NCBI GenBank assembly: GCA_946618395.1 | Contig: CAMOLD010000001.1 | Coordinates: 1-43,444, forward strand | Length of the DNA: 43,444 bases | DNA from: an uncultured Clostridia bacterium | GTDB taxonomy: Bacteria; Bacillota; Clostridia; Oscillospirales; CAG-272 | Direction of reading: 5' to 3' | In this document: piece after piece, positions 29,469-34,840 of the stretch | How positions within the stretch are numbered: position 1 is the first letter of the stretch | How the letters are laid out: every line of letters starts with the position of its first letter | Position numbers and translations under genes: made by a program | Notes under the pieces: generated by a model | What the model saw: the letters and a program-made list of their open reading frames with translations, nothing else | Database searches by the model: none | What the model was told of the DNA's origin: nothing

Positions 29469-29603
29469 ATGGATAGAAGAAACAACAAACGAAATCCCTC
29501 TACGGCAGGAGCCCTCACTCCGGGCGTTATCGTAACGCTTGCGTTGGTCGGTGCTTTTGCAATTTTGCTGACCGTCGTCGCGCTTGTCCGCGGCGCCATG
29601 TAA
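29469..29603 (+). CDS. 44-aa single-TM peptide (not in the ORF track)
   Basis: Hand translation: MDRRNNKRNPSTAGALTPGVIVTLALVGAFAILLTVVALVRGAM. AAGGAG lies 8-9 nt before the ATG. It has its own promoter and terminator. Confidence 0.55.
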   Translation: MDRRNNKRNPSTAGALTPGVIVTLALVGAFAILLTVVALVRGAM

Positions 29604-31340: not shown

Positions 31341-31369
31341 TTGACAAAAAGAAAAAGAGATGCTATACT
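31341..31369 (+). promoter_or_regulatory. Sigma-A-type promoter of the HprK-like/PqqD/peptidase operon
   Basis: TTGACA, 17 bp, TATACT. Confidence 0.6.
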
Positions 31370-31416
31370 AAAAACGGAAAAATCGTGTTTCCGCCAAAAA
31401 AAGAAAGGAGAACGGA

Positions 31417-32121
31417 ATGTTTGTCATCGAGCTTGCCGAAAAACGCATCCGCGTCAACAACCGTCACCCGTTCGTCGAGCGGCAATGCGGCGCACTGGGC
31501 TATATCGTTTCGGGAGAGGCGGCGGATTTTGAAGTTTCTGCAACCGACGCGGAAATCGCCGAAGAGCAAAAAACAGGTTCTTTTTCTCCCGGCTATTGCG
31601 AAAGCATCTGTATCTATCGGCATATCTGCGAAAAACTGCCGGAATACGGCATTTTCATTTTGCATTCCGCCATTATCGAGGTGGAAGGACGGGCCTATGC
31701 CTTTGCGGCAAAAAGCGGCGTCGGAAAATCCACGCATATCTCGCTTTGGCTCAAAAACATTCCCGGCGCACGCGTTCTCAACGGCGATAAACCGCTTTTC
31801 CGCATGGAGGCGGACGGTTCCATCACCGTTTTCGGGACCCCCTGGCAGGGTAAAGAAAACTGGGGCTACAACGGCAAGGCAAAGTTGGCGGCGCTCTGCT
31901 TTATTGAGCGCGGAGAGACCAACCGGATCCGCCAAGCCACCGAGGATGAAGTCATCTCGCGCGTCATCCATCAGGTGCTTCTGCGCGGCGAGCGGCAATC
32001 GGTCAACCTGCAGCTCACTCTGCTGGATCGGCTGATCCACGCCGTTCCATATTATATTTTGCAGTGCAACATTTCGGACGAGGCGGCAATCCTTTCCTAT
32101 CAAACCATGAGCAAACAATAA
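31417..32121 (+). CDS. HPr-kinase-C-domain-like P-loop protein (HprK-related kinase)
   Basis: HSAIIEVEGRAYAFAAKSGVGKSTHISLWLKNIPGARVLNGDKPLF aligns position by position with the HprK/P core [24 protein letters not shown]..LVADD (recalled from B. subtilis). Confidence 0.7.
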   Translation: MFVIELAEKRIRVNNRHPFVERQCGALGYIVSGEAADFEVSATDAEIAEEQKTGSFSPGYCESICIYRHICEKLPEYGIFILHSAIIEVEGRAYAFAAKSGVGKSTHISLWLKNIPGARVLNGDKPLFRMEADGSITVFGTPWQGKENWGYNGKAKLAALCFIERGETNRIRQATEDEVISRVIHQVLLRGERQSVNLQLTLLDRLIHAVPYYILQCNISDEAAILSYQTMSKQ

Positions 32122-32137
32122 AAAGGAGATATCCAAA

Positions 32138-32404
32138 ATGAAGATCAAATCGGATTTTACCATTCAAAAAGTCGGCAGTTCCTATGTTGCCATTGCCGTG
32201 GGAGAAACCAGCAAAACCTTCCGCACCATGATCAAGCTCAACGCAACAGGCGCATTCCTTTGGAATCTGCTTTCCGAAAAGGATTTGACCGAGGAAGATT
32301 TGGTCAACGCTTTGCTTGCCGAGTATGATGTGGACCGCGAGACCGCGGCAAACGACGTTCACAAGATTGTAACCGTCCTGACCGATCATCAAATCCTGCA
32401 ATGA
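32138..32404 (+). CDS. PqqD-family protein (RiPP recognition element)
   Basis: 88 aa. YVAIAVGETSKTFRTMIKLNATGAFLWNLLSE..TEEDLVNALLAEYDVDRETAANDVHKIV is the typical PqqD/RRE winged-helix pattern. Confidence 0.8.
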   Translation: MKIKSDFTIQKVGSSYVAIAVGETSKTFRTMIKLNATGAFLWNLLSEKDLTEEDLVNALLAEYDVDRETAANDVHKIVTVLTDHQILQ

Positions 32405-32856
32405 ACGAAAATATAGAAAAAATTCTTGCCGAGGACGGGTTTTACGTCAGCACCACGGTGGGCGCCAGTATGTCCCCCATGCTCCGCAACCGCAAAGACC
32501 GTGTGGTCATTCGTCCCGTCAACGGAAGGCTGAAAAAATATGATCTTCCGCTTTACCGCCGCCCGGACGGAAAATACGTCCTGCATCGCATCATCGGCGT
32601 TCGGGACGGATATTATATCATTCGCGGAGACAATACCTACCGTAAAGAGAAGGTGCCGGACGATTGGATCATCGGCTATGTTGCCGAGTTTTACAGGAAC
32701 GAAAAGCATTTTGTTACAACGCAAAAAAAATACCGCGCCTATGCGCGTGTTTGGAATTGGATTTATCCGTTGCGCGTTTGCGGCGTCAAATGCCGCCTGT
32801 TTCTTTCCAAAGTCAAACACGCAGTCCTCAAGCCTTTCCGGCGAAAAAAACAATAA
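32401..32856 (+). CDS. S24/S26-family serine peptidase, SipW/ER-type (Ser-His), without an N-terminal membrane anchor
   Basis: GASMSPML (nucleophile box), VLHRIIG (His where bacterial SPase I/LexA have Lys), IRGDN box. 4-nt overlap with the PqqD gene. Confidence 0.75.
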   Translation: MNENIEKILAEDGFYVSTTVGASMSPMLRNRKDRVVIRPVNGRLKKYDLPLYRRPDGKYVLHRIIGVRDGYYIIRGDNTYRKEKVPDDWIIGYVAEFYRNEKHFVTTQKKYRAYARVWNWIYPLRVCGVKCRLFLSKVKHAVLKPFRRKKQ

Positions 32857-32892
32857 AAAAACGACCTCCCGGTGCGGGAAGGTCGTTTTTTG
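32855..32892. terminator. Bidirectional terminator between the peptidase gene and ygiQ
   Basis: AAAAAAACGACCTCCC-GGTGC-GGGAAGGTCGTTTTTT. Confidence 0.8.
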
Positions 32893-32896
32893 ATGG

Positions 32897-34840
32897 TTAA
32901 AAGCGCTTTTTCTTGCGCGGCGGATGCACGCCGGAGGGCTTTCCGCCAATGCCGGAATTGCGCAGGGGACGGTGCGCGGACTTCGCCTCTTTTTTGGGCA
33001 CTTTTTCTTTTGCAAATTCCTGCTTGCGCGCAGATACTTTGGATGCCGGGCGGACAAGACATTCGGGCGAGAAGCCAATCAGATCCTCTCTTCCGGCAAG
33101 GCGGAGCGCTTCGCGCACAAGGTCGGCGTTTTGCGGGCGGTTGTATTGCAACAGCGCGCGTTGAAGTTGCTTTTCATGGTAATCGGTGGCAACGTAAACG
33201 TGCTTCATCGTCAAAGGGTTGATGCCGGTGTAATACATCACGGTCGAGGCGGTGCCGGGCGTTGGGTAAAAATCCTGCACCTGTTCGGGCGCGTAGCCGC
33301 CGCGTTTGAGGTAGAGCGCAAGTTCGATCGCGTCGGAGAGTGTAGAACCCGGATGGCTGGACATCAGATAGGGAACAAGATATTGCTCTTTTCCGGCTTT
33401 TTTCGTCAGTTCAAAAAAGCGCTTGCGGAACCGCTCGTAAACAGCAAAATCCGGTTTGCCCATGCAAGAAAGCACCGCGTTGGAGCAATGCTCCGGTGCA
33501 ACCTTCAACTGTCCGCTTACATTGTCGCGCACCAGCTTGTAAAAAAAGGTTTCGTCTTGATCCAAAAGCAGGTAGTCAAAGCGGATTCCACTACGAATAA
33601 AGACTTTTTTCACCTTCGGCAAAGCCTCTATCGCCTCAATCAACCGCAGATATTCGGAGTGATCCACGCGCAAATTCTTGCAAGGGGTAGGCGCCAGACA
33701 CTTGCGGTTGGAGCAAACGCCGTGCGTCAGTTGGTGTTCGCATGCCGGCGCGCGGAAGTTTGCAGTCGGACCGCCAACATCGTGAATGTAACCTTTGAAA
33801 TCTGGCAGCGCGGTAATTTTTTTGGCTTCTTCCACAACGCTTTCCTGACTGCGGGAGCGCACGGTGCGCCCCTGATGGAAAGCGAGCGCGCAAAAATTAC
33901 AGCCGCCAAAGCAACCGCGGTTGTGCGTCAGCGAGAATTTGACCTCTTCAATGCCGGGAATGCCGCCCATCGGTTCATAGGAGGGGTGGTAGTTCCGGGT
34001 GTAGGGAAGCGAATAGACGTGGTCCAGCTCCTCGCGCTCCAAAGGGGGCATGGGAGGGTTTTGCACCAACATTTTACGGTCATAAAGCTCGCAAATCGCC
34101 TTGCCGTTGATAGCGTCTTGGTTGCGGTATTGAATGCCGAATGCCTCGGCGTATTTGCGGCGGTCGGTTTTCAGCTCGTTGTAGTCAAAAGTCGCCGCAA
34201 CTTCATAGTGAACGGTGTCTTCCGGCGTTGTCAAATAGACCGTTCCGCGAACGTCATGAATTTTGCGGACGGGAATACCGCGGTCCAGCAGATTTGCAAT
34301 CCGAACCAGGATCTTTTCGCCCATTCCGTAGGTCAAAAGGTCAGCGCGGCTGTCCACCAGCACCGATCGGCGCACGCGGTCATCCCAGTAGTCGTAATGG
34401 GCAAAGCGGCGCAGGGAGGCTTCCAGCCCGCCCAGGATCACGGGAATATCGCCGTATGCTTCCCGAATGCGGTTGGAATAAACAATCAAAGCGCGGTCGG
34501 GGCGCAGTCCCGTTTTGCCGCCGGGGGAGTAATAGTCAAAGGAGCGGCGGCGCTTTGCGGCGGTGTAATGGGCGACCATGCTGTCAATATTCCCGGCAGA
34601 CACCAAAAATCCAAGGCGCGGTTTTCCAAATTCCCGAAAAGCCTCACAGGAGCGAAAGTCCGGTTGTGCAAGAATGGCAACGTGAAATCCGGCGTCTTCC
34701 AGCACGCGGGAAATGATTGCCGTTCCAAAGGAAGGGTGATCCACATAAGCGTCGCCCGAAACATAAACAAAATCCGGGCGATCCCAGCCGCGCGCCAGCA
34801 TTTCGGCGCGGTTCAGTGGCAAAAAAGCCGTTGCGTCCAT
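32897..34840 (-). CDS. ygiQ: YgiQ-family (UPF0313) radical SAM protein
   Basis: FLPLNRAEMLARGWDRPDFVYVSGDAYVDHPSFG, radical-SAM cluster motif CFGGCNFC, basic C-terminal tail. Confidence 0.9.
   Translation of the reverse strand: MDATAFLPLNRAEMLARGWDRPDFVYVSGDAYVDHPSFGTAIISRVLEDAGFHVAILAQPDFRSCEAFREFGKPRLGFLVSAGNIDSMVAHYTAAKRRRSFDYYSPGGKTGLRPDRALIVYSNRIREAYGDIPVILGGLEASLRRFAHYDYWDDRVRRSVLVDSRADLLTYGMGEKILVRIANLLDRGIPVRKIHDVRGTVYLTTPEDTVHYEVAATFDYNELKTDRRKYAEAFGIQYRNQDAINGKAICELYDRKMLVQNPPMPPLEREELDHVYSLPYTRNYHPSYEPMGGIPGIEEVKFSLTHNRGCFGGCNFCALAFHQGRTVRSRSQESVVEEAKKITALPDFKGYIHDVGGPTANFRAPACEHQLTHGVCSNRKCLAPTPCKNLRVDHSEYLRLIEAIEALPKVKKVFIRSGIRFDYLLLDQDETFFYKLVRDNVSGQLKVAPEHCSNAVLSCMGKPDFAVYERFRKRFFELTKKAGKEQYLVPYLMSSHPGSTLSDAIELALYLKRGGYAPEQVQDFYPTPGTASTVMYYTGINPLTMKHVYVATDYHEKQLQRALLQYNRPQNADLVREALRLAGREDLIGFSPECLVRPASKVSARKQEFAKEKVPKKEAKSAHRPLRNSGIGGKPSGVHPPRKKKRF

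Follow-up and report, generated by a model that had tools for sequence, protein, structure and literature searches.

A conserved HprK-fold protein, PqqD and S26-type peptidase gene trio of uncultured gut and rumen Clostridia, with a family of leader peptides as its likely substrates

On what does a peptide-processing operon act when no peptide is encoded beside it? The question is raised by a stretch of 43,444 nucleotides (nt) from an uncultured Clostridia bacterium (contig CAMOLD010000001.1 of assembly GCA_946618395.1; the whole stretch is hereafter called the window), in which three tightly packed genes (genes 1 to 3, collectively the trio) encode a protein with the predicted fold of HPr kinase/phosphorylase (HprK/P), a PqqD-family protein and a putative S26-type peptidase. 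The original prediction, made from the sequence alone, had taken them for an undescribed system modifying a peptide encoded elsewhere, akin to the ribosomally synthesised, post-translationally modified peptides (RiPPs). We find that the trio is a real, conserved and autonomous unit for peptide processing in uncultured Clostridia of gut and rumen, and describe a family of short leader peptides that are its likely substrates. We rate the whole as a pathway of the RiPP type in which neither the enzyme set nor the precursor family has been described before; from sequence comparison, it seems reasonably probable that the trio is an autonomous, trans-acting maturation module for ribosomal peptides, with this leader-peptide family as its substrates.

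One genome per species was scanned for relatives of gene 1. The scan of these species-representative genomes returned 543 stretches encoding one, nearly all of them from uncultured Clostridia of gut or rumen that bear the labels Oscillospiraceae, Eubacteriales or 'Clostridia bacterium'. Of the 56 loci fetched with a gene 1 at least 55% identical to that of the window, 53 hold gene 1, the PqqD gene and gene 3 contiguous and co-directional, and contig ends truncate the remaining three; the co-occurrence that the original prediction had asked to see in other genomes was thus found. The genes flanking the trio vary between lineages, and a separate metagenome scaffold (L214; L-numbers designate the loci analysed) carries an identical gene 1 in the same synteny. 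Against eight relatives, the ratio of nonsynonymous to synonymous substitution rates (dN/dS) is 0.06-0.25 for all three genes (0.08-0.19 for gene 1 and 0.06-0.18 for gene 2), values that are approximate, synonymous divergence being near saturation. Purifying selection acts on the trio, which is therefore no relic. The window lacks the precursor, exporter and accessory genes that relatives have (see below), as would be expected if the trio were the decaying remnant of a larger cluster with no current function; this explanation is barely credible in view of the dN/dS values, the intact reading frames with their invariant catalytic residues, the consensus promoter, ribosome-binding sites and terminator, and the retention of the bare trio in dozens of species. 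None of the three proteins matched a PADLOC model at E<=0.01, and a reading as an anti-phage defence system was rejected on these zero matches. In one metagenome-assembled genome (JAFTKJ01, RGIG3898) the trio stands on two contigs (L053 and L054) with identical scores in hidden Markov model (HMM) searches, which reflects either a duplication or assembly redundancy.

Gene 2 is the clearest of the three. Its product matches the Pfam PqqD family (PF05402) with an E value of 2.4e-18 and 66.7 bits against a cutoff of 23.4, which makes it clearly a PqqD-family RiPP recognition element (RRE), predicted to bind leaders, as had been claimed. Its nearest curated sub-families are the lasso B1-type lasso_PqqD_Strm and lasso_PqqD_Bac (E 1e-8 and 4e-7), whose cutoffs it does not reach (35 against 70 bits and 30 against 80 bits, respectively).

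Gene 3 encodes a putative leader peptidase, predicted to be a soluble Ser/His enzyme of the S26 type. NCBIfam models match it below threshold (sigpep_I_arch at E 1.6e-4, the NiSOD maturation protease and sigpep_I_bact; best curated score 21.6 bits, cutoff 51.85), and NCBI names its homologs 'S24/S26 family peptidase'. The AlphaFold2 model (predicted local distance difference test, pLDDT, 81) finds as its top fold matches SipA, SpsB, LexA and lambda cI C-domains, SipA being the best, so that the signal-peptidase fold proposed at the outset holds up. Residues S23, M24, P26, H62, R63 and G76-D-N78 are conserved in 100% of 107 members down to 25% identity. Ser23 sits in G-x-S-M-x-P-M-L, and the elements of the S26 Ser/His motif are all found: S23-M-S-P, the general base in H62-R and the G76-D-N78 box. 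Neither sequence nor model has a hydrophobic N-terminal segment or membrane anchor, and the protein should therefore be soluble, with a predicted cytoplasmic location; its sole long helix is C-terminal, 40 residues in length, basic and amphipathic.

Gene 1 encodes a putative ATP-dependent kinase, a P-loop protein of HprK/P fold assigned to the ScmC-like family (PF27840). The motifs EVEGRAYAFAAKSGVGKST and VLNGD, quoted when an HprK-like kinase was first proposed, are present. NCBIfam yielded sub-threshold matches to ScmC, HprK_rel_A and HprK_rel_B (E 7e-4 to 7e-3), with 19.1 bits against a cutoff of 125 for TIGR04249 (ScmC); in the HPr-rel-A system (TIGR04352, TIGR04353 and TIGR04355) the kinase A and B models gave 17.0 against 200 and 15.6 against 200 bits, and the model of the PqqD_rel_X chaperone 15.8 against 35. 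The homologs of gene 1 carry precomputed hits to a newer Pfam family, PF27840 'ScmC', graded from 'faint' to unmarked. Its AlphaFold2 model (pLDDT 89; predicted template modelling score, pTM, 0.83) has HprK/P catalytic domains as best PDB fold matches (E 2e-7), followed by PEPCK. In 109 unique members, down to 31% identity, conservation is 100% at H83, at G101-x-G-K-[ST]-T-H107 (the Walker A motif), at N122-x-D124-K-P and at G140-T-P-W-x-G-K146. The identities proposed for genes 1 and 3 are thus backed by structure prediction, fold search and family-wide invariant catalytic motifs.

Candidate substrates came from a hunt for recurrent small intergenic open reading frames (ORFs), followed by motif and HMM scans. 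Peptides of 33-85 aa adjoin gene 1 homologs in L013, L069, L072, L077, L078 and L087, that of L013 reading MKKVYSMPQVSMTYVGEEDMITTSGLVLFKDGTGEDAVAKAGRGDIVTW, and their homologs in the database are encoded immediately upstream of clusters running from gene 1 and PqqD to S26 in L088-L092, where the peptide genes have good ribosome-binding sites. A leader HMM run on the gene 1-anchored loci gave 14 matches at E<=5e-4, the next best standing at E=4. For a reciprocal test, a degenerate DNA pattern of about 41 bits was built by hand for [FY]-E-x-E-D-[IVM]-I-T-[TA]-S-G; it retrieved at least 120 metagenomic stretches, and the leader HMM matched in 120 of 120. Many of these contigs are short; gene 1 was found on 39, PqqD on 38, gene 3 on 38 and a gene for an NTP_transf_5 protein on 31, and the full trio was present in 8 of the 9 peptide loci having at least 4 kb on both sides. 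Compact units of one or more peptides followed by gene 1, PqqD and gene 3 occur in L098, L123, L126, L130 (with five tandem peptides) and L167. The gaps between gene 1 and PqqD in L006, L017 and L045 hold no conserved small ORF.

A HMMER scan of 1.84 billion representatives returned 5,626 clusters of the peptide family at E<=1e-3, almost all of 33-66 aa. Two long proteins among the top 150 matches to the peptide profile, P0264 (377 aa) and P0387 (237 aa), were set aside as false positives: they consist of 5-7 tandem 'GPPDVIIGMPDEDVVTAS' repeats and a transmembrane segment, and are probably unrelated repeat membrane proteins. Pfam and NCBIfam offered neither a model nor a meaningful match for the peptides. 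We found no description of the trio or of the peptides in the searchable literature, in which a 2026 survey of rumen isolates reports generic 'RRE-containing' clusters as abundant and nothing more specific (PMC13289728). The family is thus very large and undescribed.

The anatomy of the peptides was read from 278 unique sequences. Their 24-residue leader is near-invariant and has the consensus M-K-K-x-Y-x-x-P-E-[MIL]-E-[IV]-x-x-F-E-x-E-D-[IV]-I-T-[TA]-S, with Met at position -24, Lys at -23, Tyr at -20 (97%), Pro at -17 (76%), Phe at -10 (84%), Glu at -7 (93%) and Asp at -6 (100%), and ends in a junction of Ile at -4 (89%), Thr at -3 (96%), Thr or Ala at -2 (91%) and Ser at -1 (100%). Gly occupies core position +1 in 74%, and beyond it conservation collapses: the cores, of 4-63 aa (median 19), are hypervariable, mostly acidic and rich in Gly and Pro (19% Gly, 19% Asp plus Glu), with a net negative charge in 95% and a mean charge of -3.1. 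At least two Cys residues occur in 31 of the 278 cores and no Ser, Thr or Tyr at all in 47, while 6% have Ser at the C-terminus; Asp or Glu is present somewhere in 275, the first acidic residue falling anywhere from position 1 to 18, and at positions 7-9 in 47%. A conserved leader joined to a hypervariable core is the pattern of RiPP precursors. The leaders also carry the element Y-x-x-P-x-[MIL], and the RREs of lasso peptide pathways (B1 proteins) bind a motif resembling it. These peptides are likely substrates of the trio.

In loci whose gene 1 is 41-48% identical to that of the window the unit is enlarged. L064 and L087 have the order PqqD, S26, NTP_transf_5 (PF14907, E 1e-59), ABC exporter (ABC_membrane plus ABC_tran) and gene 1, and L072 has NTP_transf_5, PqqD and S26 close to gene 1. 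In one branch, which includes L162 and L173, the order is TetR, gene 1, radical SAM, peptides, PqqD, S26, ABC exporter, an unknown 322-aa protein and NTP_transf_5. The radical SAM protein of this arrangement, of 450 aa and encoded between gene 1 and the peptides, is found in 21 loci in total, and the contigs that carry it are largely those with Cys-rich cores such as GCNGMDASIGGWGCGTDNPSCPSDCWEFDVG (2x2 table 18/3/4/95; Fisher p=8e-15), which suggests that it adds thioether-type cross-links to them. Since radical SAM tracks the Cys-rich cores, the accessory enzymes follow core chemistry; gene 1, PqqD and S26 are the constant part, and the accessory enzymes are optional. Recurrence of accessory genes was taken from the recurrence table and direct scans rather than from the Pfam census of neighbours, which covered 119 ORFs and lists the best 25 families, so that rare families and single occurrences are possible. 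The phmmer counts for ABC exporters are not specific to this system and carry no quantitative weight here. A lasso cyclase is absent from the precomputed Pfam tables of L001-L006, L088-L093 and L214 and from the co-directional blocks of L162, L094 and L173, in which every gene was identified; a B2 protease is absent from the same tables and blocks. The trio therefore does not fall into a characterised RiPP class, in agreement with the original proposal; the notion of a system devoid of precursor and exporter, in contrast, did not survive, since relatives carry precursors, ABC exporters, NTP_transf_5 and sometimes radical SAM. The lack of precursor and exporter is a property of the window's clade, not of the system.

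In L077 and L078 the order is gene 1, PqqD, ABC-2 permease, ABC ATPase with a Wzt_C domain, and S26; this Wzm/Wzt-like ABC-2 pair between PqqD and peptidase recurs in L088 (Table 1). Such pairs with Wzt_C normally export polysaccharide or teichoic acid and not peptide.

In the reading that we prefer, the PqqD protein would bind the conserved leader and present the peptide to the HprK-fold P-loop enzyme, which would use ATP to modify a conserved position, the best candidates being the invariant junction Ser or Thr-3, since no further hydroxyl is shared by every substrate. Leader removal would then fall to the soluble Ser/His S26-type peptidase, cutting at T-[TA]-S|G; the small residues found at -3 and -1 of this junction agree with the rule for signal peptidases. 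If the cut fell before Ser instead, an N-terminal Ser or phospho-Ser would remain. Because the substrates have nothing in common but leader and junction, the simplest view is that the trio is leader-directed. In relatives this core would be extended by the ABC exporter, by NTP_transf_5 or, where cores are Cys-rich, by radical SAM, and NTP_transf_5 may decorate the phosphate as PsmN does. That enzyme, described as an uncharacterised NTP transferase, is reported to add a hexose to the phospho-Ser installed by the HprK-like kinase PsmK in pseudomycoidin (PMC6993621; PMC8498205), for which action of a kinase and an NTP transferase on the terminal Ser is established (PMC6993621). NTP_transf_5 in relatives matters for this reason, PsmN belonging to the same family. 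The kinase step on the junction Ser is the more tentative part of this scheme, suggested by sequence conservation and somewhat more doubtful than probable. We know of no RiPP class that uses HprK-fold chemistry at an invariant junction Ser.

The same data may be read as processing only: PqqD would recognise the leader and S26 cut it, the HprK-fold protein being an ATPase or scaffold that energises or gates the reaction, and the products would be unmodified acidic peptides comparable to the bacteriocins and pheromones with double-glycine leaders. The cores without any hydroxyl residue, the lack of a common modification position among cores and the optional nature of radical SAM and NTP_transf_5 beside a constant trio all speak for this, as does the lack in gene 1 of the D-D pair of proven kinases, and lasso leader peptidases are ATP-dependent too. 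On the other hand, that His83, Walker A, N-x-D-K-P and GTPWxGK are invariant suggests that the protein has a catalytic role and does more than bind a nucleotide, and NTP_transf_5, whose characterised relative needs a phosphate acceptor, argues for phosphorylation at least in the peptide loci that encode it. We consider processing alone unlikely, while keeping it in view.

Of the characterised systems, certain lasso peptide clusters of Firmicutes whose products are phosphorylated or phosphoglycosylated, those of paeninodin (pade) and pseudomycoidin (psm: A, C, B1, B2, N, D, K), stand closest to the trio. They share with the trio a PqqD-type RRE (B1) and an HprK-fold ATP enzyme (K), with its relatives an NTP_transf_5 (N) and an ABC exporter (D), and with the peptides a YxxPx[L/I/M] leader element, a Thr near the cleavage site and a core that begins with Gly. 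They differ in having an Asn-synthetase-like cyclase and the B2 protease, neither of which occurs in the window or in the cluster blocks inspected, where an S26 Ser/His peptidase of a different clan stands instead; their kinase, unlike gene 1, has a D-D and not an N-G-D site and is matched by Hpr_kinase_C. C-terminal phosphorylation of the paeninodin type does not fit because Ser, Thr and Tyr are lacking from many cores and a terminal Ser is rare, and the analogy drawn at the outset with such clusters is correspondingly poor; the phosphorylated linear peptide envisaged there is a conjecture. Nor do the peptides follow the lasso precursor rule of Gly, Ala, Ser or Cys at core position 1 and an acidic residue at 7-9, for in spite of the frequent Gly+1 too few have Asp or Glu at positions 7-9 or the C-terminal Ser of the kinase subclass.

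A further possibility touches on this comparison, namely that gene 1 makes an acyl phosphate on a side-chain or C-terminal carboxylate and that the freed N-terminal amine closes a macrolactam, in which case the trio would be a non-homologous analog of lasso B1/B2/C. An RRE, a leader peptidase and an ATP enzyme parallel the minimal lasso set one for one; the YxxPx[MIL] leaders with Thr near the junction, the prevalence of Gly+1, the near-universal Asp or Glu in the cores and the lasso B1 proteins as nearest curated relatives of gene 2 are in keeping with it, and enzymes of the PEPCK/HprK fold transfer phosphoryl groups to carboxylate-type and enolate substrates. Yet fewer than half of the cores have an acidic residue at positions 7-9, the position of the first one is widely scattered, and HprK-fold enzymes making acyl phosphates on peptides are without known precedent, so that we hold macrolactam formation to be highly improbable.

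The preferred reading, with its leader-directed steps, also invites comparison with three other groups. SynChlorMet (ScmC HprK-like, ScmD PqqD-like, ScmE/F radical SAM/SPASM) and HPr-rel-A, both uncharacterised and the nearest relatives of that kind, pair an HprK-like with a PqqD-like protein as the trio does, and the radical SAM partner of SynChlorMet has a counterpart in the branch of relatives with Cys-rich peptides; the scores of the genes, however, fall far under the equivalog cutoffs, the trio of the window has no radical SAM/SPASM partner, and both taxa and precursor family differ. To our knowledge an S26 peptidase is not part of either cassette. Dedicated S26 homologs, such as SipW of B. 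subtilis for TasA/TapA and SipA of S. pyogenes for pili, share the fold of gene 3; SipW uses, like gene 3, the Ser/His (ER/archaeal-type) catalytic pair, and the relatives of the trio are likewise genomically tied to large secreted or surface proteins. Gene 3, in contrast to both, is anchorless, predicted to be cytoplasmic and partnered with an RRE and a P-loop enzyme, and its candidate substrates are small leader peptides and not Sec signal peptides. The bacteriocin and pheromone systems with double-glycine leaders, in which a dedicated machine cuts off the leader on export, resemble the peptide family and its relatives in conserved leader, variable core, tandem copies and ABC exporters, but the junction is T-T-S|G instead of G-G, the peptidase is a separate, soluble S26 protein with RRE and ATP-enzyme partners, and no C39 peptidase domain was seen on those exporters of relatives that were examined.

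The tie to large secreted proteins is a frequent one. Among the 81 peptide runs with at least 1.5 kb upstream, 54 are directly preceded on the same strand by a large ORF, mostly at a gap of 15-90 nt, and most of the remainder follow the radical SAM gene of the cluster. We call such an ORF a giant if it has at least 700 aa, or at least 450 aa where cut by a contig end. Recognisable giant domains are those of surface proteins (Glug, InlB B-repeat, CAP, Big_2/GH141), several giants start with signal peptides, and they share a few types of C-terminal region, for example a Tyr-rich terminal helix ...VKALYAYGSCAQEYEYY; no leader-like motif was found in them. Of the 18 giant-linked runs with enough flank, 12 are followed by gene 1, PqqD and S26, and 6 have no cluster nearby. 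One speculation is that the acidic peptides are cognate partners of the upstream giants, which would be polymorphic secreted proteins, and not free natural products, the trio then being the maturation machine of an unrecognised peptide-plus-surface-protein system in gut Clostridia that uses HprK-fold chemistry at the junction Ser. Peptides of this kind could serve for covalent attachment or as matching ligands, immunity factors or recognition tags. We think this quite unlikely.

Where, then, are the substrates of the window's own trio? The 43-kb window holds the presumed trans-acting trio alone: no precursor (by leader HMM), cyclase, exporter, NTP_transf_5 or cluster-type radical SAM was found in it, and neither a lasso cyclase (PF00733) nor a transglutaminase-like Cys protease B2 (PF13471) was found by Pfam among its flanking genes, so that the emptiness reported at first sight extends to the entire window. 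The informative relative is L013, whose gene 1 is 67% identical to that of the window. There the order is giant, peptide, trio. A strong terminator closes the peptide gene; the trio, about 400 nt further on, has a promoter-like site and a terminator of its own. These separate units, together with the peptide units that have no cluster nearby, support action of the trio in trans on remotely encoded substrates. In the window's clade such substrates presumably have their genes at other places in the genome, probably downstream of genes for large secreted proteins. The early suggestion of a substrate encoded elsewhere thus gains from the precursor family beside homologous trios in other genomes and from the orphan precursor units.

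A different account would have the trio of this clade act on a protein, either a giant secreted one or a housekeeping one, as a dedicated kinase/peptidase pair, with peptides as substrates in distant relatives only. Under this account the absence of an adjacent peptide in 55 of the 56 loci at >=55% identity would be expected, the neighbours of the trio are housekeeping genes, peptide genes are tied to giants, and the structure that gene 3 matches best, that of SipA, belongs to a signal-peptidase homolog acting on pilus proteins. The row of giant, peptide and trio within the clade in L013 nevertheless speaks against it, as do the nature of PqqD domains as binders of peptide leaders, the catalytic and family-specific residues, all common to the peptide-linked relatives, and the absence of a leader-like motif from giants. 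We judge a protein substrate clearly improbable.

Several observations weigh against the view of the trio as a peptide-maturation module with a kinase step. A precursor lies within 6 kb in only 1 of the 56 loci at >=55% identity, that of L013, so that, with no precursor in the window, the link to its clade depends on L013 together with homology to clusters having a gene 1 of 32-48% identity. Six divergent loci (L065, L066, L068, L079, L080 and L085) have gene 3 directly after gene 1, with no PqqD between them in searches with a sensitive PqqD HMM, the RRE of this branch being either encoded elsewhere or dispensable, and L081 has gene 1 alone. Gene 1 has no Pfam match at E<=1, Hpr_kinase_C (PF07475) included; its profile gave chance-level matches only when compared by sequence with solved structures; and N-G-D stands in place of the D-D metal site of PsmK and HprK/P, so that fold and weak profile matches are its only tie to kinases. 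Of the profile checks proposed with the original prediction, that for PqqD passed its Pfam cutoff, whereas Hpr_kinase_C went unmatched and the HprK_rel_A/B and signal-peptidase models stayed below threshold. The link between giants and peptides is not predicted by a plain bacteriocin-like RiPP model, nor does the module reading account for it.

If the proposed reading is true, gut and rumen Clostridia have, in great abundance, an undescribed RiPP-like class with the trio as its constant core, on a scale of thousands of precursor clusters and some 540 enzyme loci in species-representative genomes. The pairing of ScmC-type HprK-like and PqqD proteins, known for years from comparative genomics, would thereby gain a function, and a soluble S26 Ser/His peptidase would join the RiPP leader peptidases. 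A locus that is 'RRE-containing, otherwise empty' could act in trans on scattered precursors, a case that cluster-based mining misses, and the link between precursors and giants would hint at cell-surface biology or strain recognition in the microbiome.

The features of the window and of the related loci are collected in Table 1. Within the trio, genes 1 and 2 are separated by 16 nt, genes 2 and 3 overlap by 4 nt (ATGA), and each gene is preceded by a Shine-Dalgarno sequence. The promoter-like site, assigned by consensus match only, agrees with the consensus at 11 of 12 positions and was the top site in a scan of the 5.5 kb between 29500 and 35000. The G+C-rich hairpin behind gene 3 has T-runs on both sides and can therefore act as a bidirectional terminator, that is, as a predicted intrinsic terminator common to the trio and the convergent radical SAM gene. 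Promoter, terminator and gene spacing were all located where the original prediction had placed them.

Table 1. Positions of the features discussed, in the window and in related loci (giant genes, 930-2,086 aa across the examples listed)
Feature	Locus	Position	Strand	Remark
Gene 1	window	31417-32121	+	234 aa; ORF call
Gene 2	window	32138-32404	+	88 aa; ORF call
Gene 3	window	32401-32856	+	151 aa; ORF call
Sigma-70-type promoter-like site	window	31341-31369	+	TTGACA-17 nt-TATACT, TG at extended -10
G+C-rich hairpin	window	32856-32891		15-bp stem, T-runs on both strands
8-bp hairpin	window	31373-31395		5' untranslated region
44-aa ORF	window	29469-29603	+	upstream of Amidase_6 gene
Convergent radical SAM gene	window	32897-34840	-	YgiQ/UPF0313-type
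Giant gene	L013	1418-4404		
Giant gene	L088	5383-9114		
Giant gene	L092	1121-7706		
Giant gene	L093	3-4938		
Giant gene	L094	2638-5980		
Giant gene	L098	422-5060		
Giant gene	L120	3886-8238		
Radical SAM gene	L162	7745-9100	-	between gene 1 and peptides
Radical SAM gene	L173	2739-4121	+	between gene 1 and peptides
Wzm/Wzt-like ABC-2 pair	L077	6996-9174		
Wzm/Wzt-like ABC-2 pair	L078	7004-9183		
Wzm/Wzt-like ABC-2 pair	L088	10620-12798		
Ser/Thr/Glu-rich protein	L088	9309-9608		
Ser/Thr/Glu-rich protein	L091	9285-9608		
Radical SAM/SPASM gene	L088	1838-3094	-	
57-aa ORF	L020	7490-7663		directly after gene 3
57-aa ORF	L028	5305-5478		directly after gene 3
57-aa ORF	L053	5413-5586		directly after gene 3
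57-aa ORF	L056	7446-7616		directly after gene 3
57-aa ORF	L058	7441-7617		directly after gene 3

By Pfam, the upstream flank of the trio encodes chorismate synthase, rubrerythrin, Amidase_6 and a divergent S1-domain protein, and the downstream flank the convergent YgiQ-type radical SAM protein (Radical_SAM_N plus DUF3362), a PP-loop ATPase and a methyltransferase. This radical SAM protein was rejected as a maturase of the trio because its gene is not conserved beside it in L004-L006. The 8-bp hairpin, between the -10 element and the ribosome-binding site of gene 1, could be a regulatory element or a chance occurrence. A conserved 57-aa ORF directly follows gene 3 in five loci that have the trio only; with its weak match to DUF3006 (E 0.008) and without a leader motif, it is unlikely to be a precursor. 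L088 and L091 encode, between precursor peptide and gene 1 homolog, a Ser/Thr/Glu-rich protein of 99-107 aa with a lipobox-like LTGC N-terminus and no Pfam match. About 6 kb upstream of its peptide cluster, L088 also has a radical SAM/SPASM gene with a 37-aa Target_ACGX peptide (MKNLFYKKPVSACGSACGAGDKKPSACGSACGAGDKN), a second and unrelated RiPP-like pair. Finally, the 44-aa ORF of the window, with one hydrophobic segment (MDRRNNKRNPSTAGALTPGVIVTLALVGAFAILLTVVALVRGAM), may encode a small membrane protein, and a 44-aa gene is called at the matching position in L001-L003 and L214.

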